Shown in pieces: positions 18,030 through 62,717 of a stretch of DNA of 64,000 nt. The position numbers and the translations under genes were made by a program. Position 1 is the first letter of the stretch. Every line of letters begins with the position of its first letter. The DNA is taken from contig CAXXIA010000002.1 in the NCBI GenBank assembly GCA_963666985.2, positions 1,760,001-1,824,000 on the forward strand. Direction: 5' to 3'. Below the pieces are notes generated by a model. That model ran no database searches. It saw only the letters and a program-made list of their open reading frames with translations, and was not told the origin of the DNA. The stretch comes from Spirochaetia bacterium. GTDB taxonomy: Bacteria; Spirochaetota; Spirochaetia; DSM-2461.

Positions 18030-18060
18030 GTATCGAGTTAGCATCTATGATGAGTTATAA
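18030..18060 (+). other. attI: Putative attI site (crossover G/TT at 18054)
   Basis: GTTATAAGCCATTTT is the exact reverse complement of the cassette 1 end (19201-19215); GAGTTA repeated at 18035 and 18052; no attC body upstream. Confidence 0.75.
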
Positions 18061-18268
18061 GCCATTTTTCTGTATAGATTTATATGTAACAAATAAGAAT
18101 AACAAATAGCGCCAGATGGATTATTCGCAAAAGGAGAACGCGCGATAGCTATAAGGCGGTCCTTGAAGTATACTAAGTATACAGAAATTGCTTCTCTTCA
18201 CACTTCATTTGGCATTTACTCTCTTCTGAGTTGAGGAGATTACGATTTTGAACAAAGGAGGAGTGAAA

Positions 18269-19162
18269 ATGAGGATCGGGACGTTCAATGTAGAGAATCT
18301 ATTTGCGAGGTATAGATTTAACAGCAACTTTGATCCGATTAATAGCGATGGATTTTCAATAAATAATCTTGCTTTTAGCATTAACGATGAAACTGCAAAA
18401 CAAATAACCGCAAAGGCAATACGAGAAGTAGATGCTGATATCTTAGCATTACAGGAAGTTGATAATCTAAAAGTTCTTGATCGATTTGTTTCAAGCTATC
18501 TTGCAAAAGAAAAGTATAAGCATCGGATATTGATTGATGCATTTGATCCAAGAAATATCGATGTTGCACTCATTTCTAGATATCCAATTAAGAATGTAAA
18601 AACTTATAGGTCTGAAAGAAATAGATCAAATACTGCGAGTCTTTTCTCAAGAGATTGTCTTGAGGTTGTGATTGATGCTGAAGGAAAAGAATTGACGGTA
18701 TATGTTAATCATTTCAAATCAATGTTAGGTGGTCGTGATAATACTTTTACTAGGAGAAAAGAACAAGTTGAAAAAGTTGCTGAAATTATAAAGGAAGCAT
18801 GGCAGATAAAGAACTACGAAGGCAACTATGCAGTAGTCGGTGATTTTAATGATTATTTAGAAGGCCGGACCTCGCTGACTGATTTGATTACACATCCAGG
18901 ATTGAAGAATGTCAGTGAACGTATTTTAGAATCAGAAAGATGGACTCACTTTTGGGCCGGTGGCAATGAATATAGACAATTAGATTTCATACTACTATCC
19001 CCTCAGTTGGCCGAAATAAATAATAATGCTCCAGACATAATGAGAATGGGGCTTCCTTATCGAGCCGAAAAATATTCTGGAGATCGGTTTGATTTCGTTG
19101 GAGAAAACACTCCAAAGGCGTCTGATCATTGTCCTATTGTCATGGATATAGAATTAGTTTAG
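18269..19162 (+). CDS. Endonuclease/exonuclease/phosphatase family protein (cassette 1)
   Basis: TFNVENLF, LQEV, NHFKS, GDFND, LDFI, SDHCP; GGAGG RBS. Confidence 0.9.
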   Translation: MRIGTFNVENLFARYRFNSNFDPINSDGFSINNLAFSINDETAKQITAKAIREVDADILALQEVDNLKVLDRFVSSYLAKEKYKHRILIDAFDPRNIDVALISRYPIKNVKTYRSERNRSNTASLFSRDCLEVVIDAEGKELTVYVNHFKSMLGGRDNTFTRRKEQVEKVAEIIKEAWQIKNYEGNYAVVGDFNDYLEGRTSLTDLITHPGLKNVSERILESERWTHFWAGGNEYRQLDFILLSPQLAEINNNAPDIMRMGLPYRAEKYSGDRFDFVGENTPKASDHCPIVMDIELV

Positions 19163-19208
19163 ATCGTAAAAGGAATTAGGATAGGTAATACTACTCAGAC
19201 AAAATGGC

Positions 19209-19426
19209 TTATAACAGCTGTTGATGCGCTCCGGCCGCTAAAAGTGTTTAGCGGCCTCCGGGGCTTCGCCCAAATTTCGTTTTGGCATGGCGTCTTGCAG
19301 ATGCAGATCCAGAAGTGATGTGATACAGTCAAAGGCGAACATGGTGTTGCTGTAGAAGAGCAAGAGCACATGCCAACCGGCTTTCAGCCGGACACGAAAC
19401 GTTCGCATAACAGCGGGCCGTTAATT
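19209..19426 (+). repeat. attC: attC-like site 1 (type A, 218 bp)
   Basis: AACAGCTGTTGATGCG...CGCATAACAGCGGGCCGTT. Confidence 0.85.
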
Positions 19427-19468
19427 GCAATATCGAGGACTCCGTTTTATAGAAAGGAGTTGAATGAC

Positions 19469-20203
19469 GTGAAAAACAAAATCTTGATCGCTTCAATAAT
19501 AGCAGTTCTATGTTTCCCTTTTGTGATCTATCTAACTAGATTTCCTGGACTATACTCTGCTAACTCGGTGGAATGGGGAATCTTCGGAACGTTTATTGGT
19601 GGACTACTATCATCAATTTTCGCTGGTTTGAGTTTTATTGTAGTCTTACTTGTATATTGGCGCTCAAATGAGGATAGAAAGAATCGAGAGTCGCGCGAAA
19701 CAGTTCTTAAACTGCTGGAAGAGCTAAGTAATAGATATAAGAAAATTGTGATTAGAATTGAAGATACTGCTCAGATCGGAGAAATGGTATTTTCCTATTT
19801 TAATAGTAGTGCTTTTCAGCTTTATAAATTGTACCAAGACTATCTTAAAAACAAAGAAAATGAAAACCTTAAGGGACAGGTTAAGGCGCAAGCCTTACAG
19901 ATGGTCTTCTCAATCAATACAATACGCGAGTATCTACGATTTGTTGTTCTTACTTATCGATACATTGTGAATAAGTCAATTGAGAAAGAATTTCTTTCAA
20001 TACTATCAGCAAGACTTACAGAACAAGAGATGATAGCTCTTTCTATTTTGTTGTATGACGAAATTGAAGCTGATGACAATTTGTTTAGCTATTTAAAGAA
20101 TATGAAATACGGACCAATCGAAGGCTATGCTGCAATCGGAAGAAGTCTTACAGATGCCTTAAAGCTGAATTCTCCGGAACTACCATCAAATTTGAGTTTA
20201 TGA
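19469..20203 (+). CDS. Membrane protein, putative abortive-infection (putAbiC-like) family (cassette 2)
   Basis: Two TM segments with WGIFGTFIGG motif; C-terminal ILSARLTEQE; AAGGAG RBS before GTG. Confidence 0.55.
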   Translation: MKNKILIASIIAVLCFPFVIYLTRFPGLYSANSVEWGIFGTFIGGLLSSIFAGLSFIVVLLVYWRSNEDRKNRESRETVLKLLEELSNRYKKIVIRIEDTAQIGEMVFSYFNSSAFQLYKLYQDYLKNKENENLKGQVKAQALQMVFSINTIREYLRFVVLTYRYIVNKSIEKEFLSILSARLTEQEMIALSILLYDEIEADDNLFSYLKNMKYGPIEGYAAIGRSLTDALKLNSPELPSNLSL

Positions 20204-20268
20204 TTAGGAATTATTGATTTACATGGAGAAGCGAGAATAATTGCTGGTTAGAAATGAAACGATACTGC

Positions 20269-20476
20269 AATTAACAGCTGTTGATGCGCTCCGGCCGCTA
20301 AAAGTGTTTAGCGGCCTCCGGGGCTTCGCCCAAATTTGCCTCTGTCATAGATTTTGCGAATGTCTGGCACTGTGGTAAGATGAGTTGCGGTTAGCGGTTG
20401 AGGTTGTGAAGAATCGCAAAATCTCCGCCAGTCGCTACGCGAACGGCAAACTTCGCATACCAGCGGACCGTTATTT
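20269..20476 (+). repeat. attC: attC-like site 2 (type B, 208 bp)
   Basis: Conserved termini; TTTGCC...AGATTTTGCG...CGCAAAATCT...GGCAAA arms. Confidence 0.85.
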
Positions 20477-20530
20477 GCAAGAATGAATGACGATTTCTCC
20501 TCGCCCATCCATGGGCTCGGTGGTTAGAAG

Positions 20531-21760
20531 ATGTCAAAATATAAGAAACGAGACAAATACCAGCAGCTATATGAGTTTTTAAAAGCAAAAGAAAGCAGAT
20601 CCGAGTCATTCACTGTTGAAGAAATAATAACCGCGACAGGTTATCAAGAAGGATCCGTAAAGGCATATATTCGAAACAAGCTCAATAATGTTTATCTATT
20701 CTTAATAGATGATAGTCACTATCAAGTTTCAGGAATTGCATCAAAGACACCTGATGATTTTGAATCGATTATGTCGCAAAAAAGCGATTTGGTTGTGTCA
20801 GACTCAGAAAGCCTATTTACAAGCCTTAGGGATCGTAGTCTTCAAGCGTTTTATACTGCAATATCTGTATATAACAATCCCTTGCATGAATATAGGATAG
20901 AATCCTTTTGTATTCTTTTATCAAATGCATGGGAACTTTTACTCAAGGCTAGAATTGTTCAACTGGAAGGTGAAGATAAAATATACAAATCAAAAGGGAA
21001 GACAATTTCGTTAACAGAAGCCTATCGTAAAGTCTTTCCACGTTCATCTGATCCTATTCACAAAAACTTAGAAACACTTACCGAGATTCGAGATTCAGCA
21101 GTACATCTACTTATTCCGGATATTCAACATTCTTTATCTCGTATATTTCAAGCTAGCATTTTTAATTTTCTTTCAAAGGTAAGAGAATACAAATATCCAA
21201 ATAAGTACCATAGCGATTTACCAGGTCTCTTATCTTTTGTTACAGATAAACAAGACGTTCCTGAAAATGTAATACGTCTAAAGTATGGAACCTATGCAAG
21301 TGGACTAATAAAAGAATTTATTGAAAAGAATACCTCACGCGAATCCGAAGTTTCCGATATGCGTTATTCAATACCAATCGACTACAAGGTAGTTCTGACA
21401 AAAAGTGAAAAGGAAGGAGATTTATCTATCCGTATAGATAAGGATGGAGAACCCGCCATACTGGTAGAAAAACCCAAGGATGTTAATAAAACGCATCCCT
21501 ATCTTCAGAAAAATGTAATAGAAGCCGTGAATCAAGGTCTCGATGATGTCGGTCGGTCTCAATACCATCTCAACCGATATTCGTTTCGTGGAGCTCTCGA
21601 AGTTGAAAAAGTTAGGAGAACACAATCCAATAAATTCTATCATTTATTAGAAAATCCGGAAGTTCATAAGTACTCACAAGCATTTATAGATCTTCTTCTC
21701 CACAAACTTTCAAACAGTGATAGTTACCTACAGTTGTGTAAAAAAGCTTTGAAAAAATAG
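20531..21760 (+). CDS. DUF3644-type (HEPN-like) protein (cassette 3)
   Basis: YNNP...RIESFCILLSNAWELLLKA and RDSAVH (RxxxxH). Confidence 0.7.
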   Translation: MSKYKKRDKYQQLYEFLKAKESRSESFTVEEIITATGYQEGSVKAYIRNKLNNVYLFLIDDSHYQVSGIASKTPDDFESIMSQKSDLVVSDSESLFTSLRDRSLQAFYTAISVYNNPLHEYRIESFCILLSNAWELLLKARIVQLEGEDKIYKSKGKTISLTEAYRKVFPRSSDPIHKNLETLTEIRDSAVHLLIPDIQHSLSRIFQASIFNFLSKVREYKYPNKYHSDLPGLLSFVTDKQDVPENVIRLKYGTYASGLIKEFIEKNTSRESEVSDMRYSIPIDYKVVLTKSEKEGDLSIRIDKDGEPAILVEKPKDVNKTHPYLQKNVIEAVNQGLDDVGRSQYHLNRYSFRGALEVEKVRRTQSNKFYHLLENPEVHKYSQAFIDLLLHKLSNSDSYLQLCKKALKK

Positions 21761-21821
21761 AAGTGGCCTGAAAGTACATCCTTGTACTTTCAGGGAGACT
21801 TATCCATCTCGTCATTCCTGC

Positions 21822-22039
21822 AAATAACAGCTGTTGATGCGCTTCGAATACATTTGCAGGCAAATGTATTCTCCGGGCCTTCGGCCAAATTTCGTTTTGG
21901 CATGGCATCTTGCAGATGCGTTTTCGAAAGTGATGTGATACAGTCAAAGGAGAACATGGCATTGCGTTAGAAGGGCAAGAGCGCATGCCAACCGGCTTCG
22001 CCGGACACGAAACGTTCGCATAACAGCGGGCCGTTTGGC
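21822..22039 (+). repeat. attC: attC-like site 3 (type A)
   Basis: Conserved termini; variant first hairpin GAATACATTTGC/GCAAATGTATTC. Confidence 0.85.
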
Positions 22040-22096
22040 GAAATCTGTTTTAGAAAAATATTTTTTTGCCTCACCTTCCATGGTTCGGCTTTGTTC

Positions 22097-22381
22097 TCAC
22101 CTGTAGGCGCTACTTCGGGGTTCGAGAGAAATAATACTGACAATTCTAACGGCGTCATCGATTACATAGAAAAGTCTATAGTTACCAATTCGATACCGCC
22201 ACGTTTCTGGTTTCCAGTCTTTCAACTTTTTGATGTTTTTTCCGAAATAGGGGTTTTTGCGTAATTGGTCGTAGACCATGCCTGAAATCTTTCTGTATTG
22301 TGATGAACTTCCATTCATTCGTAGCTTTTTTAGATCTTTAAGAAATTGATCCGTTTCAAAAATTTTAAATCGTTCAGACAA
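22097..22381 (-). CDS. RelE/ParE family toxin (cassette 4)
   Basis: WRYRIGNYRLFY motif; overlaps antitoxin. Confidence 0.88.
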   Translation of the reverse strand: MSERFKIFETDQFLKDLKKLRMNGSSSQYRKISGMVYDQLRKNPYFGKNIKKLKDWKPETWRYRIGNYRLFYVIDDAVRIVSIISLEPRSSAYR

Positions 22382-22613
22382 ATCGACCTCTACCGTTCTT
22401 AGCGTCTTTGGTTCCCTGCTTCATTCGTTTTAAAAGGCTTTCATCAGAGAGGATGCTTTCCATTTCGAAATCGTCGGCATATTCAACCTCTTCGATGTAT
22501 CTCATTGTTGCAGTCTCGATAAAATTTGAAATCGAACGATTCTCAGCATCGGCATGGACTTTTAAGGAATCGTAGAGTTCTTCATCAATTCGTAGAGAAA
22601 CAGTTTTGGTCAT
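22374..22613 (-). CDS. Ribbon-helix-helix antitoxin (cassette 4)
   Basis: KTVSLRIDEELY...ENRSISNFI; acidic C-terminus. Confidence 0.85.
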   Translation of the reverse strand: MTKTVSLRIDEELYDSLKVHADAENRSISNFIETATMRYIEEVEYADDFEMESILSDESLLKRMKQGTKDAKNGRGRFV

Positions 22614-22755
22614 ATCATTATCCCCTCTATGAATACATTGTATTCATATGTGTTTAAATTAGTTCATAGCGTTATTGAAGTCAATAGGGCGATTTTAGAG
22701 GTCTCCCAAGTACATCCTTGTACTTGGAAGAGTGGTAAAACACCAAACAGACTTC

Positions 22756-23027
22756 GCCAAACAGCTGTTGATGCGCGGCGGCCGCTAATGGGATTAGCGG
22801 CCTTGGGCCGAGCGATGGAAAACCAAGAGCTTTTAAATTTCTGTTGAAGGGAAAAATCAAATTGGTTCGGCTCGGCCAAATTTCGCTTTGGCCATGGTTC
22901 TTGCAGATGCGTTTCTAAAAGTGGTGTGATAAGCTGAAGAGCGAACGGGCTTTCTGTTAAAGTGCAAGAACGCATGCCAACCGGCTTCGCCGGACGCGAA
23001 ACTTCGCATACCAGCGGAACGTTTAAC
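22756..23027 (+). repeat. attC: attC-like site 4 (type A with extra arm, 272 bp)
   Basis: Conserved termini; inserted GGCCGAGC...GCTCGGCC arm. Confidence 0.85.
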
Positions 23028-23155
23028 GAAAAAATCAGAAGGCCTTTTCCATGCCGCCTTTCTTGGTGCCATGAATAGGAATATTCAATTTCCTAAAAGA
23101 ATTAATGGTAATAATGTATAGTTAGTAATCCTGTAGTGATAACGAAGAGTAGAAA

Positions 23156-23860
23156 ATGGAAAACATAATCAAAATACTCGGTGAGCATCCAACTGCTGTT
23201 ATTGCAGATGCTGCTTTTAAGATTGGAGCAACAGTTCGTCTTCTTCCTTCAAATCTATACTCTCTTAAGCCAGATGCACGATTAATCGGTAAAGTTACAA
23301 CCGTTAAATGCAATAACGATTTGGTCTCTATTCTCGAGGGGCTTATGCGTGCAGAGAGTGGAGATGTTTTACTAATCGACAATAATGGTTTCTCAGGGGC
23401 AGGTTGTATCGGAGATGTCATCGTTTCGGAAGCTGTTCGTAAGAAAATCTCTGGGATTGTTGTCTATGGATCCATTAGAGATAGCCAGCAAATCTCTACG
23501 ATGGAAATTTCTGTGTTCTGTACTGGAAAATGTTCTGTTGGGCCATTGAAGCTACCTGGGCAGCAGTCGAAAAATGGTCTTGTTAACGTAGTCTTGGAAA
23601 TAGAGGGAACTTCTATAAAACCTGGAGATATTCTTATTGGCGATGTTGATGGTGTAATTGTTGTAGAAACCGATCGCCTTGATGAAATTATTAGCAAAGC
23701 AGAAGAAATTGAACATAAAGAAGAGACTTTAATGAAAAGAATCGAGTCAGGAGAAAGTCTTACAGACATATTTGGGGTTAAGAAGTTCTTAGAGAAAAGA
23801 GAAGGGGATCCAGAGTATTTATTCAATTCTCATTTGGCAGAACAGAATGAAACGATTTGA
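23156..23860 (+). CDS. RraA family protein (HMG aldolase-like) (cassette 5)
   Basis: GDVLLID, GCIGDV, GSIRD, PGDILIGDVDGV. Confidence 0.88.
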   Translation: MENIIKILGEHPTAVIADAAFKIGATVRLLPSNLYSLKPDARLIGKVTTVKCNNDLVSILEGLMRAESGDVLLIDNNGFSGAGCIGDVIVSEAVRKKISGIVVYGSIRDSQQISTMEISVFCTGKCSVGPLKLPGQQSKNGLVNVVLEIEGTSIKPGDILIGDVDGVIVVETDRLDEIISKAEEIEHKEETLMKRIESGESLTDIFGVKKFLEKREGDPEYLFNSHLAEQNETI

Positions 23861-23931
23861 TTCAGTGAAAGGTGAGCCAATAAGTGATTAGATAGAGGTA
23901 TTTTCTATTTGGCATTTTTAGGGATTTCTTC

Positions 23932-24208
23932 GTTAAACAGCTGTTGATGCGCGTCGGCCGCTAAAGGTGTTTAGCGGCCTTGGGCCGAGCGATGGGTATT
24001 GGTTAAGTTTTATTATTTTTGAAGAAGAAGAGAAAATCAGATTGAATCGGCTCGGCCAAATTTCGCTTTGTCATGGCTCTTGCAGATGCGTTTCCGAAAG
24101 TGATGTGATACCATCAAAGGCGAACAATGAATTGCTGTAGAAGAGCAAGAGCGCATGCCAACCGGCTTCGCCGGCCGCGAAACTTCGCATACCAGCGGGC
24201 CGTTAAAG
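23932..24208 (+). repeat. attC: attC-like site 5 (type A with extra arm, 277 bp)
   Basis: Conserved termini; extra GGCCGAGC/GCTCGGCC arm. Confidence 0.85.
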
Positions 24209-25047
24209 GAAATTCGGACGACGGAATAAAAAAGGTCTCTTTTTTGAGGGTTTTTTTCTGTGGCAGCCTCATTCCCTTCATTTGAACAAGTAACAAAAAC
24301 AGAATCCCTTTGAGTGTTCAGATTTTTTTAACAGGCCTTCCTTCTCTTTGAACGAAACAGGTCGTTTTCATACGGCTTTCTCCTCACCCCCCTCGCCTTT
24401 GAGATCATCTTCAAGAAAGAAACCAAAAGCATCGGAATAAAACTCGCTTCGGGATCAGAAGCACTTAGTGATAAGGCGGTCGGTTCGGGAGAACTTGTGT
24501 CGTGAAGGTTTATGGTTTTTAACGATTATGGGAATCGCTCATGAGAAAATCCTTATCCGTTGATGGCTATCGCTTCGGGAAATGAGGCGCTTCCGGTTTG
24601 ATCGGTTCGCGAGAAAAGGGGTGGTAGCCTGAGAAGAATGAAGGGATGGAGATGAGAAGAATGGAGATTGTTTTCTCCGTAGTTTTGCCTTTGAGAATAA
24701 GGCTGAATGCTTTAAGAGAATACCGGTGTAGAAGGAGAAGACGAACATTCGGATTTACAGAATCCGTCCTGAGAGAAAGAGGTCGGGAAAGGCGAATTGC
24801 ATCGGATGAAGGCCTGAGTAAAGTGATGAGGCGATGAAAGGGAGAATAGGGGTCAGTACGAGAGAATGGATAGAAATTCCGTTAAATGAGTAAAAAGCGG
24901 AAGAGGGAAGTCTGTAAAAGGATGAATGAAGAAAAGATGAGAAGGAGAAGGGCAAGAAGAATCGAAACAAAGGGTCCGGCAAAACGGCGAGGAGGGGTGA
25001 GGAGAAGGAGAGGTCTTTATAGATGCGTCGTCCGAACTTCCTTTAAC
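24203..25047. other. Gene-less cassette 6 (about 840 bp body)
   Basis: 22-bp terminal inverted repeat; only short low-complexity ORFs. Confidence 0.7.
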
Positions 25048-25248
25048 AGCTGTTGATGCGCTTCGGCCGCTAAAGGTGTTTAGCGGCCTGCGGGGCTTCG
25101 CCCAAATTTGCCTCTGTCATAGATTTTGCTTAAGTCTGTCGCTATGGTAAGATGAGTTGTAGTTAGCGGTTGATGTTGTGAAGATTCGCAAAATCTCCGC
25201 CAGTCGCTACGCGAACGGCAAACTTCGCATACCAGCGGGCCGTTATGT
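25041..25248 (+). repeat. attC: attC-like site 6 (type B)
   Basis: Conserved termini and arms. Confidence 0.85.
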
Positions 25249-25298
25249 GCTTTTTCGTTTTTCCAGTTAATAACATTAATTGCCATAAGGAGGGAGAA

Positions 25299-25751
25299 AT
25301 GGGCATCAATTATCAATTAAAAGCAGAAAAAGGCAAAATCGAAGATGAATTAAATTCCGCAATTAACAGGCTTATTTCTGGCTGCGAAAAGCTTGATATG
25401 GCTTTAGCTTTCGAAATCTTCTCAGATTCATCTGAGTTCTTGATGATGGGAACGGATGGAAGCCTTTGTGATTATCAGACTTACTTGAAAAACAATATCG
25501 ACTATTTATCCGGTTGTGAAAGTTTTAAGTTGATAACGTTTGATCGAAAAATACGAATCATAAACAGTGAGGTAGCCATCTTTTCATGGGCTTATGGGGT
25601 TGAGGCAAAATTAAGAACGGGAGATATTGATATTATTGATAATGCAGGAGCTTCTTTTGTCTTCCGAAAAATAGAGAATACATGGAAGGTTGTATATTAT
25701 CATGAGTCATCAGTACCTCCGAAAAGAAACTCTCCACCAAGAGAATCATGA
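25299..25751 (+). CDS. NTF2/SnoaL-like protein (cassette 7)
   Basis: C-terminal FVFRKIENTWKVVYYHES; AAGGAGG RBS. Confidence 0.8.
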   Translation: MGINYQLKAEKGKIEDELNSAINRLISGCEKLDMALAFEIFSDSSEFLMMGTDGSLCDYQTYLKNNIDYLSGCESFKLITFDRKIRIINSEVAIFSWAYGVEAKLRTGDIDIIDNAGASFVFRKIENTWKVVYYHESSVPPKRNSPPRES

Positions 25752-25845
25752 CGATTGAAATCCAAGTGTAAATAAGGGATTACACAGAACGTCGCGCAAG
25801 TATCGCTTTCTGTTGCTGTTTATAGTTATGTCGGAATCAGAATAT

Positions 25846-26334: not shown

Positions 26335-26400
26335 GGTTAATTCCGAATACTCTGTTTAAGAAGATGAACTCTCAATAAAGATAGATATGAGGGAAAAAGC

Positions 26401-27129: not shown

Positions 27130-27167
27130 GATATGCCTTCATCAAAAACTACAGGGCTGAATTCAGA

Positions 27168-54447: not shown

Positions 54448-54975
54448 ATGAGTCCAGAAACGATTGCATTTATCTCACTAATTGTCGCATTTATTTCGGT
54501 TCTAATTTCTATTAGGGGTAATAGAATTGCACGGAAGAGCCTCTCGCTTTCACAAAAGCAAGATGAAGACTTAAATCGTGAAATTGTAGGATACCTTATT
54601 GATGGTATTCGTTGGAACTCAAATAAAAATAGCTACATTTCATTTGCTGTTTCTTACACAAACACGGCAACTGCTAAGAATACATTTACTAATTTCATGC
54701 TTGAAATAGAATTTTATGATGAGCAGAAGAAATTTGGGAAAATAAAATTAGATCCAAAAAGAAAAGAAATCCCCAACCAAATTTCTGAAAAATTGTCTGA
54801 GATGGAACTACCTATCAATATCGGAGATCGTGAAACGATATCTGGTTGGATAACTTTTCAATTACCAACAATGACTGGTTTAAATATTGAGCAATATAAA
54901 ATTCTAGCAGAAACAGCAAATCATCAAATAGTTGAAATTGACTCTATTCTTGTTTCGAAAGTGGTGGAGAGATGA
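54448..54975 (+). CDS. Hypothetical protein with N-terminal TM helix (cassette 23)
   Basis: ATG 54448 just after the IS end; IAFISLIVAFISVLISI. Confidence 0.7.
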   Translation: MSPETIAFISLIVAFISVLISIRGNRIARKSLSLSQKQDEDLNREIVGYLIDGIRWNSNKNSYISFAVSYTNTATAKNTFTNFMLEIEFYDEQKKFGKIKLDPKRKEIPNQISEKLSEMELPINIGDRETISGWITFQLPTMTGLNIEQYKILAETANHQIVEIDSILVSKVVER

Positions 54976-55517
54976 GTGAAGAAATGCATTTGTCAATAAT
55001 TGCCGATGGAGCTATTGCTTCAACACAAATTGGTGATGGACGACTTATTCCAGTGCTAATTCTAGAGTGCAATGAAGGAAATAACTTTAAAAGGCTAGTT
55101 GAAATTCAAGAATCGACGAAAACAGGTGATGCAATTGTACGATGGGGATATCAATTACATAGTAAAAGGTATGTACGACTAAATGTATCTTTCTCAAAGC
55201 CAATGGAAATCGAGATCAATATAACTTTTGATCTTAGAAAATACGCTATGGTTGTTGATGGTATTCAAATTGTCAAATCAGTTTATTTACAGCCAGGACA
55301 AATGGGAGATCGTGTATCTTCAACGATGGATCACCCAAAGATTGTCATTGAAATACCCGAAAAAACAAGACTTGCAAATTGGGACTTAATTGTTCTTAGC
55401 AATATAAAAAGGAGGTTAAGAAAGAAAATTAGTTCAAGAAAGTCTCTAAAGAAGGCAGCTCGCGATCATTTGGAAAAGGGACGCGAAGTCTTTTTGAAAA
55501 GAATGGCGGTTGAATAG
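54972..55517 (+). CDS. Hypothetical protein (cassette 23)
   Basis: 181-aa ORF coupled by ATGA overlap. Confidence 0.72.
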   Translation: MSEEMHLSIIADGAIASTQIGDGRLIPVLILECNEGNNFKRLVEIQESTKTGDAIVRWGYQLHSKRYVRLNVSFSKPMEIEINITFDLRKYAMVVDGIQIVKSVYLQPGQMGDRVSSTMDHPKIVIEIPEKTRLANWDLIVLSNIKRRLRKKISSRKSLKKAARDHLEKGREVFLKRMAVE

Positions 55518-55525
55518 TTTATTTC

Positions 55526-55733
55526 ATTTAACAGCTGTTGATGCGCTCCGGCGATAATCAGGGATTATCGCCTCCGGGCCTTCGGCCAAATTTGCCTCTG
55601 TCATAGATTTTGCGTAAGGCTGCTGTTGTGGTAAGATGAGTTGTAGTTTGCGGTTGAGGTTGTGAAGAATCGCAAAATCTCCGCCAGTCGCTTGAGCGAA
55701 CGGCAAACTTCGCATACCAGCGGGCCGTTTGGC
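55526..55733 (+). repeat. attC: attC-like site 23 (type B)
   Basis: Conserved termini; first hairpin GGCGATAATC/GATTATCGCC. Confidence 0.85.
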
Positions 55734-55799
55734 GAACTTGCTCAAAAGAAAAATATTTTCATATTGAAAGGTAGTACTTATGTATAGTACTATAATTTT

Positions 55800-56057
55800 G
55801 TGACGAGTAAGAACCGAAAGACACTCGAGGCCATTTTCCAACGACCAACATCATCGAATATCAAATGGAAGGACATCGAGACCCTTTTTCTTTCTCTCGG
55901 TGGGGAAATCTCCGAAGGCTCGGGTTCTCGCGTACGAGTAAAACTCAATGGAGAAAGAGCTGTCTTTCATCGGCCTCATCCTCAGCCAACGACGGATAAA
56001 GGGGCGGTTGAGTCTGTAAAAAGATTTTTGAAGAACGCAGGAGTCAAAGATGCTTGA
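55800..56057 (+). CDS. hicA: HicA toxin (cassette 24)
   Basis: WKDIETLF, EGSGSRV, HRPHP. Confidence 0.92.
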   Translation: MTSKNRKTLEAIFQRPTSSNIKWKDIETLFLSLGGEISEGSGSRVRVKLNGERAVFHRPHPQPTTDKGAVESVKRFLKNAGVKDA

Positions 56058-56385
56058 GTATAAAGGTTATATAGGAACAGTCACATTGGATTCAGACGCT
56101 CATATCTTTCATGGCGATGTCATTAATACTCGAGATGTTATTACCTTTCAAGGTCGGTCAATCGATGAATTGGAGCAGGCTTTTCATGGTTCGATCGATG
56201 ACTATCTGGAATGGTGCAAGGAAGATGGTTTGGAACCGGAAAAACCATACTCTGGTCGATTCAATTTACGTATTTCTCCTGAACTTCACAGAGAGGTGGC
56301 CATTCAAGCCAAAAAGGAAAAAATGTCAATTAACAGCTTCGTGGAAAAAGCTGTTAAGGACGAATTGTCTCTGAGTCACTCATAA
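56050..56385 (+). CDS. hicB: HicB antitoxin (cassette 24)
   Basis: YKGYIG, ITFQG, PEKPYSGRFNLR. Confidence 0.92.
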   Translation: MLEYKGYIGTVTLDSDAHIFHGDVINTRDVITFQGRSIDELEQAFHGSIDDYLEWCKEDGLEPEKPYSGRFNLRISPELHREVAIQAKKEKMSINSFVEKAVKDELSLSHS

Positions 56386-56386
56386 G

Positions 56387-56803
56387 ATGTTTAATCTGAC
56401 ACAGAAAGCAGCAAAACATTTCAAAGAAGTATATTCATCACTAGAAGGGCGATCAGGAAATTTCTGGCGTTTGGATACTGTATATATTAATCACAGAAAA
56501 ATATTAATGTGTGTACATGAACCGACTTTGTTTACTCATTTATTTTATGGAACCGAATATAAAACGTATGAACCAATAGTCAGAAAATTAAAGGATTATC
56601 ATCCTTGGTTTATGGATGGGTTCAGTGTTGGAAAGGGACTGAATAGAAGAGTTGGTGGTTCAATGACGGATATGAAAATTTCAATGAAATACTATTCAGA
56701 AAAAACACTTAAAGAACTCGAGGAAGAAATTAATCAAACGCCTTATTCATATCTTGAACATGGAGTTCCAGAATCTGAGCTTCAGGAATTTGTATTAAGA
56801 TAA
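56387..56803 (+). CDS. Hypothetical protein (cassette 24)
   Basis: 138-aa ORF directly after hicB, ending before the attC. Confidence 0.7.
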   Translation: MFNLTQKAAKHFKEVYSSLEGRSGNFWRLDTVYINHRKILMCVHEPTLFTHLFYGTEYKTYEPIVRKLKDYHPWFMDGFSVGKGLNRRVGGSMTDMKISMKYYSEKTLKELEEEINQTPYSYLEHGVPESELQEFVLR

Positions 56804-56814
56804 AAAGCAAGTTC

Positions 56815-57022
56815 GCCAAACAGCTGTTGATGCGCTCCGGCCGCTAAAAGTGTTTAGCGGCCTCCGGGGCTACGCCCAAATTTGCCTCTGTCATAGATTT
56901 TGCGTATGTCTGACGTTGTGGTAAGATGAGTTGCAGTTAGCGGTTAAGGTTGTGAAGAATCGCAAAATCTCCGCCAGTCGCTTTGCGAACGGCAAACTTC
57001 GCATACCAGCGGACCGTTTAAT
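56815..57022 (+). repeat. attC: attC-like site 24 (type B)
   Basis: Conserved termini and arms. Confidence 0.85.
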
Positions 57023-57088
57023 GAATATTCGATGTATTTATGAATGTTCTAAGGTGCAATATTAGTAGCAATTTCAGGAGCTAACTCT

Positions 57089-58309
57089 ATGACGAGTTTT
57101 ATAATATCCAACGCCGCGGACCCTTCTGAATCCTCTATAGAAATTTCCAAAGAGAGATATCTCGAGTACACAGATGAGTCGAGATTTGCTTCGCTTTTTT
57201 CTCTATCCGACGAGGCAATTGAATCCATAAAGAGTTGGCCATGTCTTATTACTACTGAGGGTCGTAGTTCTGAAATCATAAGATTGGTAAAAATCACATC
57301 GATCCTCGAAACCAATTCGGCGTTTCAAGTAGCTTTTCAAGTATTGCCATTAAAAAAACCACTTACTAACGGATTGGTATGGAAAGAAAGGCACCGTCTT
57401 GGTCTCGAAGAGTTCGAATTCAACCGGTATCATTGGACAATAAAAACAAGCAATATTTTCGAAGTGCTTCTCGATGAGAGCTTTGTTGGATCATCACAAA
57501 TAGAAGCGTTTCCAGAAATGGAAGTTCCTTCCCCAATACGATCAGATCTGATAGCCGCTAAGAATATTATTTCTGAATGGAGTCATACAGAAATAGATGA
57601 CTTCCTCTTAGAGGCCGGAGTTGTCGGTTTGAATGCAGATCGTTCCATCGGAAGTAGACATGATCGCGTAAACACTATTCTTCGATCAGTATTAAAAAAG
57701 CCATGGTTAAAAACAGCTGAGAACCGATTGTTTTCTAGCTTTATGATTGAAAAGGCGGGTGCTGGAGTAACAGATCAAAATCCAGAAGCGAATGACGAAC
57801 AACGGGTGCCTGACGAACCCGTAAAGGAATTGGGGCTAGATTTTCCGATATCGTCAGAAACACCAACAGCAGTTTCGACTCGAGTATTTGTTGTTCATGG
57901 GCGTAATGATGTCATTAGAAATCAAATAGTTACTTTCTTATCAGAAATAGGGCTAGATCCAATCGTTTTACACGAGCAGGCAAATATGGGCCGCCATTTG
58001 CTTACGAAGTTCATAGATGAAGCCGATTTAGCCTCTTTTGCCGTGGTCATAATGACAAACGATGATGAAGGTGGTCTTTTAGATGAAGGAAAGAAGCCAC
58101 GGGCACGTCAAAATGTAATATTTGAATTGGGATACTTCATCGCACACTTGGGCCAGAGGAAAGTCTGTGCGTTAATATCTCCAGGCCTTGAGACTCCTTC
58201 GGATTTCGATGGCATTGTATATGTTCCTATAGATGAGCAAGAAGATTGGAAAAAAACACTTCATCGTGAATTAGCTGCAGTAGGTATTCCCGTAAAGGTT
58301 CCTAAGTGA
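57089..58309 (+). CDS. Protein with C-terminal Cap12/Pycsar-type TIR domain (cassette 25)
   Basis: VFVVHGR, LHEQAN, RARQNVIFELGYF, PSDFDG. Confidence 0.85.
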   Translation: MTSFIISNAADPSESSIEISKERYLEYTDESRFASLFSLSDEAIESIKSWPCLITTEGRSSEIIRLVKITSILETNSAFQVAFQVLPLKKPLTNGLVWKERHRLGLEEFEFNRYHWTIKTSNIFEVLLDESFVGSSQIEAFPEMEVPSPIRSDLIAAKNIISEWSHTEIDDFLLEAGVVGLNADRSIGSRHDRVNTILRSVLKKPWLKTAENRLFSSFMIEKAGAGVTDQNPEANDEQRVPDEPVKELGLDFPISSETPTAVSTRVFVVHGRNDVIRNQIVTFLSEIGLDPIVLHEQANMGRHLLTKFIDEADLASFAVVIMTNDDEGGLLDEGKKPRARQNVIFELGYFIAHLGQRKVCALISPGLETPSDFDGIVYVPIDEQEDWKKTLHRELAAVGIPVKVPK

Positions 58310-58333
58310 TTATTTATAGCAATCTGAATATTC

Positions 58334-58548
58334 ATTAAACAGCTGTTGATGCGCTCCGAATACATTTGCATGCAAATGTATTCTCCGGGGCTTCGCCCAA
58401 ATTTCGCTTTGGCGATGGTTCTTGCAGATGCGTTCCTAGAAGTTGTGTGATAGGCTCAAATGCGAACAGGTTTTCCGTTGAAGTGCAAGAACGCATGCCA
58501 ACCGGCTACGCCGGCCGCGAAACTTCGCATACCAGCGGAACGTTATGT
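58334..58548 (+). repeat. attC: attC-like site 25 (type A)
   Basis: Conserved termini; first hairpin as in site 3. Confidence 0.85.
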
Positions 58549-58598
58549 GCTTTTTCGTTTTTCCAGTTAATAACATTAATTGCCATAAGGAGGGAGAA

Positions 58599-59051
58599 AT
58601 GGGCATCAATTATCAATTAAAAGCAGAAAAAGGCAAAATCGAAGATGAATTAAATTCCGCAATTAACAGGCTTATTTCTGGCTGCGAAAAGCTTGATATG
58701 GCTTTAGCCTTCGAAATCTTCTCAGATTCATCTGAGTTCTTGATGATGGGAACGGATGGAAGCCTTTGTGATTATCAGACTTACTTGAAAAACAATATCG
58801 ACTATTTATCCGGTTGTGAAAGTTTTAAGTTGATAACGTTTGATCGAAAAATACGAATCATAAACAGTGAGGTAGCTATCTTCTCATGGGCTTATGGGGT
58901 TGAGGCAAAATTAAGAACGGGAGATATTGATATTATTGATAATGCAGGAGCTTCTTTTGTCTTCCGAAAAATAGAGAATACATGGAAGGTTGTATATTAT
59001 CATGAGTCATCAGTACCTCCGAAAAGAAACTCTCCACCAAGAGAATCATGA
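58599..59051 (+). CDS. NTF2/SnoaL-like protein (cassette 26, duplicate of cassette 7)
   Basis: Protein identical to 25299-25751. Confidence 0.8.
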   Translation: MGINYQLKAEKGKIEDELNSAINRLISGCEKLDMALAFEIFSDSSEFLMMGTDGSLCDYQTYLKNNIDYLSGCESFKLITFDRKIRIINSEVAIFSWAYGVEAKLRTGDIDIIDNAGASFVFRKIENTWKVVYYHESSVPPKRNSPPRES

Positions 59052-59145
59052 CGATTGAAATCCAAGTGTAAATAAGGGATTACACAGAACGTCTCGCAAG
59101 TATCGCTTTCTGTTGCTGTTTATAGTGATGTCGGAATCAGAATAT

Positions 59146-59550
59146 ATGGAAAATGAAATAGTAATAGATAAAAAATCCAGCCGGGCGATTTGGGCTCTAT
59201 AGTGGAATTGCATGGCAACTATTACAGCAAGCATTTTGGCTATAACATAACCTTTGAACCATATGTTGCTTTACCTCTTGCTAAGAAGAAAGCAAAAACT
59301 GCGCAGTTGAGATGGTTTATCCTTGATGGAAGTCTCCAAGGAAAAGGCATTGGAAATCAACTAATGAGATTTTCTATTGATTTTGCAAGAGAAAAAGGAT
59401 TTTACAAGCTGATTCTCTGGACGGTAAGGGATCTAAAAAGTGCGATTCATCTGTACGAAAAGAATCTTTTTTTTGCTTAAGAAAGAAGTTTCCCACAAGA
59501 TTTGGGGGGTGGAATTGACGGAACAACACTATGAATTGAAGTTGAAATAG
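59146..59550 (+). pseudogene. GNAT pseudogene (cassette 26)
   Basis: Versus 25846-26334: -1 in an A run, 84-bp deletion, +1 in a T run. Confidence 0.85.
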
Positions 59551-59616
59551 GGTTAATTCCGAATACTCTGTTTAAGAAGATGAACTCTCAATAAAGACAA
59601 ATATGAGGGAAAAAGC

Positions 59617-59824
59617 ACATAACAGCTGTTGATGCGCTCCGGCCGCTAAAAGTGTTTAGCGGCCTCCGGGGCTTCGCCCAAATTTGCCTCTGTCATAGAT
59701 TTTGCGTAAGTCTGTCTCTGTGGTATTATAAGTTGCAGTTAGCGATTGAGATTGTAAAATTTCGCAAAATCTCCGCCAGTCGCTACGCGAACGGCAAACT
59801 TCGCATAACAGCGGGCCGTTTGAT
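59617..59824 (+). repeat. attC: attC-like site 26 (type B)
   Basis: Conserved termini and arms. Confidence 0.85.
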
Positions 59825-59842
59825 GAACTTTTCGCTTTGAAG

Positions 59843-61185
59843 TGAGCGACCAGGACATCCTTTACATTTTAGGTTCAGGACATCGTTTACACAAAACAAG
59901 CTTAAACGAAGCATTTGAATCCATCAACTGAAGGGAGAAAGGCATAGGTTTTCAAATCAATTTCTCCCAATCTGAGATTGTCAAACCATACGGTGAAGCT
60001 CTCATCCTCATTCTCCCGAAGTCCAACTTGGTATCCTGAAAAGACATAACTGACAAAGACTCTATGCCTGTCGATAGTAACGGCTCCCCGATTATTCACC
60101 ATTCTCACCAGATACCCGGCCGGGTAGATCACCTGAGGGATTCGAGGAGGGAAAGGCCGATTGGACTTTGTGTAAATACTTCCGGGAGTCTGCATTTTGA
60201 GAGCTTCATGCGGACGAACACTGTTGAATTGATTTCTCCAAACATCAAAGTGTGCCTGATGTTCTGAGAGGTTCCCTTGAATCTGTCCCTGCAATTCGCG
60301 TTTGATATCGGCATGCATTCTTTCATGCCCTCCGTTTTCACAAGGCCTTCCTGGAGTGATGCGATCAAGTTCAATTCCCAAGGCCAGCCACCAAACACTT
60401 AAGCGGGTGAGTCCGAGTAATCCCTTCATGGAAGCAAAGGGTGGTCCGTTATCGGAGCGGATTACCCGAGGGATTCCATAGAGAGAAAAGAGCTTTTCGA
60501 ACTCTGTTCTAACTTCTTGTGTGTCAGCCTTTTGGAGAGCTTTGATGGTGAAGATGTATTTGGAGTATTCATCCCGAACCGTCAGAGGTTCACACTTTTC
60601 ATTATCGGGAGTGTACCACCATCCTTTGAAGTCGACCGTCCAGATATCATTAGGGGCTTTGGCCTGCAGATGTGTTTGGATTCGGCTGCCTTTGGTCTGC
60701 TGCCGTTTCTTTCGATGATGAACCAGTCCTGCTTTATCAAGGATGCGTTTGACGGTGGTGAGGCTTGGGGGATTATTATGAGGATGGGTCTTCTGGTAGA
60801 TCTCGAGAATCTTTTTTGGCCCCCAGCTGGAGTTGTGCAACGTCTTGATCCGGATAATACCGCATATAACGTCTTCAGGCGTTTGGTTGGGGCTGCTGCG
60901 AGGTCTACGGGGTCGTTCCTTCAACCCGGCGAGCCCTTCCTGGATAAACCGGTTTTTCCATTTAAGGCCTGTCGGCCGGGAGATCCCGTACTCAGCACAG
61001 AGGTCTTTCATACAGACATGGGGATCCATGGCCTTGAGGGCGAACTCGAATTTGACGTCCATAATATTGGTCTCCTTCCACGGCATAACCAGCACCTCGA
61101 TAAGGGAAAGTGCTGATCATTTTAGTTCTTGTCGTGTAAAGGATGTCCTGGTACTCTCGTGTAAACGATGTCCTGAACCCGTACC
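59843..61185 (-). mobile_element. IS481-family element copy 3 (1343 bp)
   Basis: Same ends as copies 1 and 2; AAG(T) duplication. Confidence 0.9.
59902..61095 (-). CDS. IS481-family transposase
   Basis: Protein identical to 38334-39527. Confidence 0.9.
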   Translation of the reverse strand: MLVMPWKETNIMDVKFEFALKAMDPHVCMKDLCAEYGISRPTGLKWKNRFIQEGLAGLKERPRRPRSSPNQTPEDVICGIIRIKTLHNSSWGPKKILEIYQKTHPHNNPPSLTTVKRILDKAGLVHHRKKRQQTKGSRIQTHLQAKAPNDIWTVDFKGWWYTPDNEKCEPLTVRDEYSKYIFTIKALQKADTQEVRTEFEKLFSLYGIPRVIRSDNGPPFASMKGLLGLTRLSVWWLALGIELDRITPGRPCENGGHERMHADIKRELQGQIQGNLSEHQAHFDVWRNQFNSVRPHEALKMQTPGSIYTKSNRPFPPRIPQVIYPAGYLVRMVNNRGAVTIDRHRVFVSYVFSGYQVGLRENEDESFTVWFDNLRLGEIDLKTYAFLPSVDGFKCFV

Positions 61186-61269
61186 AAGTCGTTTTATCTT
61201 GTCTGAGTTAGAAGGAATGTTTTTCTTATTGTGAAAATGATATTTCTTATGCCAGCGAATCTATTCAAA

Positions 61270-61422
61270 TTATACGGTAATCATTTTTTGATTCTTTTTA
61301 AGAATCTTCGTTAAGGATTCTCCCCAGTATTTTACTTCAATTCCAACATCTTCAAGAAGAGCCGTAACTCCAAGTTGATCGGCGCAAGCCTTACACTCAG
61401 AAACCTTTGCACCATTCTTGCT
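61270..61422 (-). pseudogene. 3' fragment of a DsrE-like gene (cassette 27)
   Basis: Reads KNGAKVSECKACADQLGVTALLEDVGIEVKYWGESLTKILKKNQKMITV-stop with no start codon. Confidence 0.55.
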
Positions 61423-61802
61423 CAATTGCTACCCGATAGAATCATATTAATAATTCCTTCTTCAGTTTCGGGTATATCATAATCTCCAGTGAGTTTCCCA
61501 GGATAGTGATACGCAATCCCCTCTTTCTCATTTCTTTCGAGACAATCTAAAAGCTGTTCAGTGCTATTTTTCTTAATAAATCTGGCAAATGCTCTTATTC
61601 GTATTTTATCCAGCATACTTCCATTACATGGAAATTCATCGCATTCCCAACAACCATTGAGTTCTCTTTCTTTGCAACAGCGAAGATTTTTACACCATTC
61701 CTTATTTGCACAACCATCGTTACGGCATCCAAGACAATCTGCATTCTCACTGCAAACAGCACAACCAAGACCGCAATATGCAATGCCTTTTTGTCTATCC
61801 AT
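61422..61802 (-). CDS. DUF3795-type Cys-rich protein (cassette 27)
   Basis: AYCGLGCAVC, CLGC, CC, GCWECDEFPC. Confidence 0.8.
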   Translation of the reverse strand: MDRQKGIAYCGLGCAVCSENADCLGCRNDGCANKEWCKNLRCCKERELNGCWECDEFPCNGSMLDKIRIRAFARFIKKNSTEQLLDCLERNEKEGIAYHYPGKLTGDYDIPETEEGIINMILSGSN

Positions 61803-61830
61803 ACACTTTATCTCTTTTAAGAAATCTGAA

Positions 61831-62157
61831 TTATCGTAATTGACGATTCAACAAAATATCTTCAACATTTCTGCGTCCGTCCATGACGGCCATAATAAAA
61901 ATCTTTTGCTGTTCTACCCGGTAAATCACTCGCCATGGAGAGATAATAATCTCACGATATCGATAAACATTCAGATCCTTCAATTCGGGAACAACGCGTC
62001 CGTGTTGTGGGAAATCAGTCAGTCTGGATACTTCGGTTTCGATTTCATCAAGAATCTTACGAGCAATGCTGATTGAGTCTATTTTGATATACTCAATGAT
62101 TTCAAAGAGATCTTCACGGGCAGTTTTGGTCCAGAAAATCCGAAACGATTTAGGCAT
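61831..62157 (-). CDS. RelE/ParE family toxin (cassette 27)
   Basis: AREDL.EI.EYI, FPQHGRVVPEL, WRVIY, DGRR. Confidence 0.9.
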   Translation of the reverse strand: MPKSFRIFWTKTAREDLFEIIEYIKIDSISIARKILDEIETEVSRLTDFPQHGRVVPELKDLNVYRYREIIISPWRVIYRVEQQKIFIMAVMDGRRNVEDILLNRQLR

Positions 62158-62425
62158 TTTCTAAAAGGTTCCGAGCGTCTTGAAAGACAGAGGCATGTTC
62201 TACAAGTTCGTTGTTTTCGGTATCTCTTTCGCCTGCAGCCATAAGTTTAAGAATCCCAAGGCTATTTCTCATATCTTGATAAGACTTTGTATCCATAAGG
62301 ACAGCTTTCGCTTCACCATTTTGAGTTATCACAATAGGGCTATGAGTTTCATTAACGCGTTTGAGCGTATCGGCGGCATGAGTCTTGATATATGAAATTG
62401 GCTTAATATCTTCCGAAACATTCAT
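62150..62425 (-). CDS. Phd/YefM antitoxin (cassette 27)
   Basis: IKPISYIK, PIVITQNGEAKAVL. Confidence 0.9.
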   Translation of the reverse strand: MNVSEDIKPISYIKTHAADTLKRVNETHSPIVITQNGEAKAVLMDTKSYQDMRNSLGILKLMAAGERDTENNELVEHASVFQDARNLLENA

Positions 62426-62509
62426 AGTGTTCTCCCAACCTATCTAGTCTTTATATGTTACTCTAAAAAGACTGGCGAGGCAATGTGAGAGTGTGAGTAG
62501 GAAAAGTTC

Positions 62510-62717
62510 ATCAAACAGCTGTTGATGCGCTCCGGCCGCTAAAGGTGTTTAACGGCCTTCGGGGCTTCGCCCAAATTTGCCTCTGTCACAGATTTTGCGA
62601 GAGGCTAGGGCTGTGGTAAGATGAATGGGAGTAAGCGGATGAGGTTGTGAAGAATCGCAAAATCTCCGCCAGTCGCTTCGCGAGCGGCAAACTTCGCATA
62701 CCAGCAGAACGTTAAGT
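62510..62717 (+). repeat. attC: attC-like site 27 (type B)
   Basis: Conserved termini and arms. Confidence 0.85.

Follow-up and report, generated by a model that had tools for sequence, protein, structure and literature searches.

Self-matching cassette ends with a recurrent A/C mismatch at position 11 in a spirochaete array beside an I2-less tyrosine recombinase

In integrons, the match of a cassette start with its own end, the crossover at G|TT and a circular cassette stage are ordinary biology. Self-pairing was found to extend past the 7-nucleotide (nt) boxes to 9–11 nt in most cassettes (Bouvier et al., PMC2727003), and G:T pairs favouring the bottom strand were described for classical attC sites (PMC5027507). 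The I2 domain of the integrase IntI was called necessary by Escudero et al., intermediates being lacking (PMC7790495, PMC4792948), and for want of such intermediates its origin was termed a chicken-and-egg problem. CTXphi integration shows that use of a folded strand is possible for a recombinase lacking I2 (PMC4792948, PMC7790495). Cury et al. listed 21 I2-less recombinases near attC sites, four of them between IntI and Xer (PMC4889954), and integrons were described as rare in some phyla (PMC9024848). In this study, a window of 64,000 nt (the whole stretch analysed, from Spirochaetia bacterium contig CAXXIA010000002.1, positions 1,760,001–1,824,000; contig C2 of genome G000 below) was analysed for the terminal inverted repeats of the gene cassettes that it carries beside a tyrosine recombinase. 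New here are the stem length (median 17), a fixed mismatch at position 11 in both arms, a dif-like attI and the I2-less recombinase; a literature search, judged mostly by titles and abstract starts and with subscription journals outside its coverage, turned up no description of arrays without I2 or of a mismatch at position 11.

Cassette ends, crossover point and outer stem

At ~17 kilobases (kb) of the window, housekeeping genes with 50–60% GC give way to a low-GC cassette array, at the head of which lie two features:
17133..17966, minus strand: IntI-related tyrosine recombinase of 277 amino acids (aa) without the I2 domain (PF00589 and PF13495), divergent from the array.
18038..18065, plus strand: predicted attI, with an 11-base-pair (bp) arm, a 6-bp spacer ending at the crossover G18054, and an 11-bp arm from cassette 1.

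Twenty-seven cassettes span 18054 to 62516, each closed by a palindromic repeat of ~200–270 nt running from AAC to GTT, and the array continues beyond the window to ~C2:1,936,000 with ~86 sites. Inner motifs alone served to locate the site ends (27 left, 27 right), so the outer match reported below was not pre-set by the search.

The crossover, which the initial annotation had placed at G/TT, was borne out at 18054, beside the recombinase. Duplicated cassettes begin at this point and carry their own downstream site core, the similarity between duplicates being 0.87 for the downstream core (46 pairs) vs. 0.65 for the upstream one (45 pairs), and in a related strain (contigs of runs X3/X4) another cassette start is joined at the same attI point. 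The 11-6-11 layout of attI, with G8 kept, is found upstream of the recombinase in four genomes (G000, G015, G016 and G017). The dif site has the layout 11-6-11 as well.

Each cassette start had been claimed to match its own end rather than a neighbour's, through repeats of 14–22 bp, and both the claim and the range held when the 27 cassettes were measured. Compared with the reverse complement of the own end, positions 4–7, 9, 10, 12 and 13 of the start matched in 27/27 cassettes, positions 8 and 14 in 26/27 and position 15 in 25/27, whereas the ends of other cassettes matched at 24–57% over positions 4–15, except for the conserved G8 (96%). In total, start and own end matched in 306 of 324 cells at positions 4–15, whereas 20,000 permutations averaged 147 matches and never exceeded 199, and the own end was the best partner for 26 of the 27 starts; the strings quoted in the initial annotation are those at 18054/19201 and 59818/62501. 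These results confirmed that the observation is real and far beyond chance.

The analysis was extended to the whole array (C2:1778054–1935716), in which 85 intervals were delimited; four non-self-matching intervals, which probably hide missed or broken sites, were dropped, and the remaining 81 were reduced to 57 distinct cassettes. Their median outer stem was 17, and the mutual information between start and end was significant to position 17 but no further, which, with the stems of 14–22 bp in the window, supports the proposed extension of the outer stem past a 7-bp core. After the first break, matching stayed over background (0.32–0.50 vs. ~0.25–0.3). Among 11 related cassette frames, five variable columns changed jointly on both arms with one exception in 55 cells. 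Position 8 was G in 57/57 ends, and GTT and G8 were the only fixed bases; the ends depart from the 7-nt consensus RYYYAAC/GTTRRRY, position 4 being A in 32 and T in 25 cassettes and position 7 a pyrimidine in 53/57. The order of neighbours was not selected for pairing, as the 83 integrated junctions averaged 5.19 matches vs. 5.32 when shuffled (p = 0.73).

The position-11 mismatch in outer and inner arms

At position 11, an A in the start faces a C in the end of 14 of the 27 window cassettes (2, 3, 4, 5, 6, 10, 11, 12, 13, 15, 16, 18, 21 and 22), while the other 13 pair normally there, cassette 17 having an A/C at position 8. The 13 cassettes listed in the initial annotation were all correct, but cassette 21 had been overlooked. 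Among the 57 distinct cassettes, 31 were mismatched at position 11, all of them A/C, vs. 9/570 at the other positions 4–14 (Fisher P = 8e-29, in a test that treats cassettes as separate though they are not fully independent), indicating that the place of the mismatch is not random in this larger set. Its polarity was unchanged in reversed-gene cassettes (10, 11, 12 and 21) and in gene-less ones (6, 13 and 16). Since the core travels with the upstream cassette and another cassette is joined at the same attI, the bottom strand would be the one exchanged, and on that strand the A/C is a G:T wobble. Wobble stems were longer than the others (median 18 vs. 15, P = 4e-7) but no less stable and no more so (−15.4 vs. 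−16.0 kcal/mol, P = 0.43), which is what selection on stability would produce; this compensation in length, together with the joint change of both arms, fits selection on the stem.

The inner (L) arm carries the same bases, its bottom strand reading G-A-A-G-T at positions 8–12 counted from the spacer, like the end arm. In 112 of 235 distinct sites from other genomes the inner stem continues past position 8, and in these the top-strand partner at position 11 was A in 112/112, with A/C at this position in 104/112. In this genome, the inner stem ended at position 8 in 70/70 sites, and the bottom G11 (60/70) was predicted to be unpaired at the branch. The spacer is 6 nt on one strand and 10 on the other, giving a predicted 4-nt bulge. 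The single bulged base of the arms was a top-strand G (bottom C) in 69/70 sites here and was absent in 214/235 elsewhere. The extrahelical bottom-strand G of the L'' box with 5–6-nt spacers, by which attC is recognised, was not found in these sites. A shorter minority site type (~130 nt) without a bulged G was also observed in the same array (C2:1831070, 1920231 and 1927011), as were isolated left site halves outside it (C1:803968, minus strand, and C2:2674171), the C1 half lying ~6 kb from a 283-aa relative of the recombinase.

The 57 distinct cassettes were then circularised in silico, as had been suggested earlier, and folded with DNA parameters. The predicted circular bottom strand was 4.1 kcal/mol more stable than the top strand, folded better in 51/57 cassettes, and lay 12.0 kcal/mol below the integrated form. 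The predicted pairing at position 11 was 0.91 for the bottom strand and 0.45 for the top strand. A bottom strand that folds better than the top is also a property of integrons.

Outside this genome, loci were taken from the matches listed in collection scans that carried the right-end pattern. Among the matches listed, the site family occurred in Spirochaetota, Bacteroidota, Ignavibacteria, WOR-3, Peregrinibacteria, Clostridia and several archaea, and the site profile found 310 sites vs. 3 in reversed controls. The exact left motif of the window was almost private to G000 among 38 relatives, and the right-end motif was present in 21/401 genomes of the phylum, mostly as a single occurrence. In a scan of the window, Rfam had no match to the site family, the sole match being an ALIL element. 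Of 86 intervals in other genomes, 57 from 30 loci passed a filter on positions 1–7 and 29 were dropped; in the 57, among which kin are not independent, start position 11 was A in 56 and A/C occurred at position 11 in 39, rising to 50/57 if one bulge near position 10 was allowed (Spirochaetota 19/22, Bacteroidota 16/17, other or unnamed groups 15/17, archaea 0/1). Bacteroidota cassettes (L036, L066, L085, L100 and L105) often had an extra base at end-arm position 10, which displaces the C by one, with the A/C kept around the bulge.

As a canonical baseline, 148 distinct intervals were taken from part of a Vibrio anguillarum superintegron (L173) and from viral-contig loci; of these, the 99 with perfect positions 1–7 were kept and 49 dropped. 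Their own-end match was 92, 83, 75, 60 and 45% at positions 8–12 and at background from position 13, the median stem was 11, and A/C at position 11 was seen in 6/99. The median stem of 15 in other genomes (57 cassettes) was significantly longer than the canonical 11 (99 cassettes; P = 2e-19). Locus L173 (MK672802.1, 27091–41427) was deposited as a Vibrio phage, but its sequence takes in thrS-infC-rpmI-rplT of the host and, besides an IntI gene, the beginning of a superintegron. In L161, L230, L261, L298 and other viral-contig loci, all of them canonical environmental arrays, inspection by eye suggests in many cases ribosome-binding sites beside the AAC end, as though the genes were reversed relative to the usual orientation of attC.

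The recombinase, the proposed reaction and its alternatives

The residues R133, K158, H222, R225, H248 and Y257 of the recombinase were invariant in 97 homologues. The absence of the IntI-specific I2 domain was evident from three comparisons. The IntI profile TIGR02249 matched at profile positions 2–177 and 240–314 only, leaving 178–239 unmatched (220 bits vs. a cut-off of 265); the catalytic R..H spacing was 89 vs. 128–132 in IntI; and the best sequence match in PDB, IntI4 (2a3v, E 7e-46), aligned in two pieces with ~45 residues missing between them. An alignment-based structure model (pLDDT 86; a single-sequence fold with pLDDT 45 was discarded) gave Z 23.2 and a root-mean-square deviation of 3.9 over 262 aligned residues with 2a3v, XerA (5hxy) being tied at Z 22.3. 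XerC/XerD models were far below their cut-off, the XerA model NF040815 stood at 224.6 vs. 220, and Xer-like genes lie separately on contig C1. An R..H spacing of 89–90 was also measured in nine recombinases that lie within ~2 kb of such sites or head arrays (L001, L003, L004, L036, L052, L054, L066, L079 and L100) and in L008, ~4 kb away, vs. 128–132 in six recombinases beside canonical attC; the broken gene L099 was left out. In a tree of 50 proteins, IntI formed one clade (100/100), while the I2-less array proteins fell on several branches of an unresolved, unrooted backbone, which is compatible with, but not proof of, an ancestral grade.

Several further observations concern these proteins. 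A perfect palindrome, GCGTTATAACGC, at 17970–17981 just upstream of the recombinase start is a possible operator. In G021 (C1 ~1887000–1898800; L022 with L008), an I2-less recombinase precedes the array and points the same way, whereas the layout here is divergent, and in L158 (NZ_CP115190.1, 15007–16917) an I2-less relative (R..H 91) lies directly upstream of an IS91-family transposase. The plasmid matches H38/H39 proved not to be canonical integrons, and a single-protein locus scan of the genome contigs gave no match.

Altogether, the system would work in an integron-like manner yet falls outside both IntI and attC as these are recognised. From the observed sequence pattern, its symmetry, its spread and the missing domain, we put at about two in three the probability that the adjacent I2-less recombinase uses a folded single-strand site, in which the matching cassette ends make up both strands of the outer binding arm. 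Were this enzyme to act on such a single-strand substrate, the outer arm would be complete only in the excised cassette circle. The site is two-fold symmetric about its short spacer (6/10 nt), each arm of the bottom strand presenting G at position 8 and usually A-A-G at 9–11 going outward. G11 is kept from a normal pair, lying opposite T in the outer arm and opposite T or unpaired in the inner arm, and the top strand has an A-C mismatch at position 11 instead of the wobble. This mark and the asymmetric spacer may replace the extrahelical bases and the I2 helix of classical integrons, choosing the bottom strand and hence the cassette orientation. The reaction would stop after a single strand exchange, the predicted 4-nt bulge beside the cut site blocking the second, and replication would resolve the junction. 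Once integrated, each end faces its neighbour's start and the arm barely pairs, and this weak pairing may bias the reaction toward integration over excision and stabilise the ~86-cassette array.

A number of points weigh against this reading, which was drawn from sequence and assembled contigs. Deletion of I2 abolishes IntI1 activity (PMC7790495, PMC4889954), and Cury et al. judged the I2-less recombinases near attC not to be IntI (PMC4889954). G000 has further Xer-like genes whose products could work in trans, and proteins of the same I2-less kind are also found next to an IS91 transposase or where the annotation gives no sign of an array. The positional feature proposed by the initial annotation is supported at position 11 by the sequence of both outer and inner arms, but 26/57 cassettes pair normally there, so the wobble is not required in this genome, and bottom-strand wobbles were not enriched outside position 11 (20 vs. 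14, P = 0.39). In the inner arm, G11 belonged to the seed pattern, though its partner base did not, and 27 of the 112 sites with continuing stems are of one type. Integrated sites have a predicted crossover pairing of ~0.36, which leaves the start of excision unexplained. The wobble supplies just 1.1 of the 4.1 kcal/mol of strand bias; from this we infer, as a guess, that recognition by protein contact to G11 would be more plausible than an effect of stability alone.

The paired ends might instead be a scar of copying, one end having been copied from the other at cassette birth or repair, whether through fold-back synthesis or through conversion of a hairpin, with an error or base change specific to position 11 and a stem that is idle beyond ~10 bp. 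How new cassettes arise is not known (PMC4889954), and the near-perfect private matches at variable positions (nine mismatches in 570), the variable tract length (14–22 or more) and the rarity of G/G at position 11 (2/57) all agree with such copying. It is nevertheless unlikely, as the inner arm, which is inherited and not newly made, has the same A/C at position 11, matching persists past the first break instead of ending cleanly there, the extra length of wobble stems is just what restores their stability, and the end arms mostly lie just past the stop codon rather than in coding sequence. No un-cassetted donor of any cassette gene was found in G000, where the matches were insertion sequence (IS) copies and two partial matches. 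A lower probability still is given to an ordinary integron with unusually long attC, in which the longer pairing and the A/C are lineage drift and position 11 is not specifically read. Self-pairing of 9–11 nt (PMC2727003) and the G:T skew (PMC5027507) are already in print. Canonical cassettes also match past position 7, IntI4 is the best structural match, and almost half of the cassettes here do without the mismatch; against these stand the fall of canonical pairing to background by position 13 with few A/C at 11, the start A11 in 56/57 cassettes of other genomes (30 loci, at least two phyla), and the combination of a recombinase without I2 and sites without a bottom-strand extrahelical G.

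A function in RNA appears very improbable. In that case, a 15–20-bp helix with an A-C mismatch would close each cassette in the transcript and guide the processing of single-cassette messages; the top-strand start can indeed pair with its own end while integrated, which the DNA hairpin model leaves unused, and a helix of 15–20 bp suits double-strand RNases. The mark is, however, fixed relative to the crossover, and its polarity is the same in reversed-gene and gene-less cassettes. Its mirroring in the inner arm, together with the G8 kept in attI, points away from an RNA signal or an error of copying and towards an arm bound by the recombinase. Least credible, and already largely refuted, are miniature transposons with terminal inverted repeats moved by a nearby transposase: the ends are paired over 14–22 bp and several IS transposases lie in the array, but the repeats differ from cassette to cassette, the units abut via a conserved 190–270-nt core that travels with the upstream unit, and the shared family repeat, target duplication and scattered copies of IS or miniature elements were not found, nor were whole cassettes outside the array in G000.

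We advance a broader proposal tentatively, at a little under even odds. The arrays may form a second, widespread and overlooked integron class, whose recombinases never had I2 and read a symmetric, wobble-marked arm of 11 or more bp instead of extrahelical bases; they may still represent today the stage that gave rise to IntI, and may provide cassette systems for Bacteroidota, spirochaetes, candidate phyla radiation (CPR) bacteria and archaea, groups that by current tools mostly have none. I2 is regarded as both the hallmark of IntI and a requirement for capturing cassettes, and an I2-less recombinase beside an array of ~86 cassettes bears on its origin; with such a recombinase and a different, simple site code, that question could be put to the test using a single small protein and oligonucleotides as substrates. 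Arrays whose recombinase escapes the intI_Cterm profile (PMC4889954) can also be detected by the long private stem and its fixed mismatch, a rule applicable in phyla where integrons were reported to be rare (PMC9024848), and these arrays carry defence and toxin–antitoxin genes.

Array contents and comparison with known systems

The cargo consists of toxin–antitoxin pairs, acetyltransferase, TIR, STAND and nuclease genes, gene-less cassettes and IS insertions, a set typical of chromosomal integrons. The cassettes of the window, with start arm/end arm, stem length and the bases at position 11, are as follows:
18054..19419 (+): cassette 1; arms 18054–18068/19201–19215, 15 bp, paired at 11; core 19216–19419; Exo_endo_phos; second copy at C2:1913135.
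19420..20469 (+): cassette 2; arms 19420–19435/20260–20275, 16 bp, A19430/C20265.
20470..22032 (+): cassette 3; arms 20470–20486/21812–21828, 17 bp, A20480/C21818; DUF3644 gene.
22033..23020 (+): cassette 4; arms 22033–22050/22745–22762, 18 bp, A22043/C22752; ParE-RHH pair on the minus strand.
23021..24201 (+): cassette 5; arms 23021–23036/23923–23938, 16 bp, A23031/C23928; RraA-like gene.
24202..25241 (+): cassette 6; arms 24202–24223/25026–25047, 22 bp, A24212/C25037; no long open reading frame (ORF); arms common to 6 array members.
25242..26602 (+): cassette 7; arms 25242–25256/26393–26407, 15 bp, paired at 11; SnoaL and GNAT.
26603..30272 (+): cassette 8; arms 26603–26618/30059–30074, 16 bp, paired at 11; IS3-type transposase genes.
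30273..31675 (+): cassette 9; arms 30273–30286/31467–31480, 14 bp, paired at 11.
31676..33278 (+): cassette 10; arms 31676–31696/33059–33079, 21 bp, A31686/C33069; gene on the minus strand.
33279..34870 (+): cassette 11; arms 33279–33296/34660–34677, 18 bp, A33289/C34667; DUF2971 on the minus strand.
34871..37750 (+): cassette 12; arms 34871–34886/37540–37555, 16 bp, A34881/C37545; Mrr-nSTAND3 on the minus strand.
37751..38248 (+): cassette 13; arms 37751–37768/37976–37993, 18 bp, A37761/C37983; ORF-less, 7 array copies.
38249..41028 (+): cassette 14; arms 38249–38264/40815–40830, 16 bp, paired at 11; IS481-like insert; SLFN_AlbA_2 gene.
41029..41979 (+): cassette 15; arms 41029–41046/41763–41780, 18 bp, A41039/C41770, further mismatch at 14; HigBA.
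41980..42478 (+): cassette 16; arms 41980–41997/42205–42222, 18 bp, A41990/C42212; copy of cassette 13.
42479..43514 (+): cassette 17; arms 42479–42492/43304–43317, 14 bp, A/C at 8, paired at 11; methyltransferase, stop inside the end arm.
43515..44827 (+): cassette 18; arms 43515–43535/44613–44633, 21 bp, A43525/C44623; HicAB on the minus strand.
44828..46896 (+): cassette 19; arms 44828–44842/46688–46702, 15 bp, paired at 11; KAP NTPase-like.
46897..48378 (+): cassette 20; arms 46897–46911/48170–48184, 15 bp, paired at 11; PIN and GNAT.
48379..49491 (+): cassette 21; arms 48379–48394/49282–49297, 16 bp, A48389/C49287; beta-barrel gene on the minus strand.
49492..50861 (+): cassette 22; arms 49492–49508/50646–50662, 17 bp, A49502/C50652; NAT_N/GNAT_C.
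50862..55726 (+): cassette 23; arms 50862–50876/55518–55532, 15 bp, paired at 11; IS481-like insert broken by an IS21-type element.
55727..57015 (+): cassette 24; arms 55727–55742/56806–56821, 16 bp, paired at 11; HicAB and DUF6933.
57016..58541 (+): cassette 25; arms 57016–57030/58326–58340, 15 bp, paired at 11; TIR-domain gene.
58542..59817 (+): cassette 26; arms 58542–58556/59609–59623, 15 bp, paired at 11; relative of cassette 7.
59818..62710 (+): cassette 27; arms 59818–59833/62501–62516, 16 bp, paired at 11; IS481-like insert; ParE-Phd; core 62517–62710.

The ALIL match is a frameshift pseudoknot (RF01497) at 28614–28730, within the IS3-type element of cassette 8. The IS481-like element has 9 of its 12 left ends in G000 located 25–26 nt past a cassette crossover G, just outside the outer stem (window 38275, 50887 and 59843; C2:1838818, 1855914, 1865292, 1877974, 1886129 and 1933553), with an apparent target duplication of 3–4 nt; an empty allele of cassette 27 without this insert lies at C2:1911589, and one copy outside the array (C2:3078803, minus strand) has a site-end-like motif at the same distance, which suggests that the element targets these sites at a fixed offset. 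Eleven cassettes (window 5, 10, 11, 12 and 22; C2:1842861, 1851832, 1859319, 1900950, 1908675 and 1921393) have related 5′ and related 3′ modules around unrelated cargo in either orientation, as reusable frames, and most of them contain a hairpin with CGTC in the loop.

Compared with known systems, the locus shares with pdif-like and IS terminal-repeat modules that its genes are bounded by short recombination signals, but it differs in having one folded site per cassette, private arms, a dedicated recombinase and no target duplication. With Xer/dif and CTXphi-type integration it has in common the lack of I2, an R..H spacing near that of Xer, and the dif-like 11-6-11 core of attI; in contrast, a dedicated recombinase lies here beside the array, in place of host XerCD acting at the terminus, the genome has separate Xer-like genes, and the arms vary per cassette.

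Treponema integrons are likewise chromosomal cassette arrays in spirochaetes, but their intI faces the array, their attC has a protruding G, and the intI of T. succinifaciens, compared by gene span, covers ~1.2 kb vs. 0.83 kb here (PMC3607928). The sedentary chromosomal integrons, that is, Vibrio superintegrons with VchIntI4, show the same divergent recombinase, first insertion site and long array of toxin–antitoxin, defence and unknown genes, the same AAC...GTT ends and G|TT crossover with the core on the upstream cassette, own-end pairing beyond 7 nt and a better-folding bottom strand, and 2a3v is the best sequence and fold match of the recombinase here. The present system differs from them in lacking I2, in an outer stem with a median of 15–17 bp vs. 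11, in the A/C at position 11 of both arms, in a spacer of 6/10 nt, in a bulged base that, if any, is a bottom-strand C, and in sites of 191–269 nt vs. 57–142 in print, whose arms conserve G8 and GAAG.

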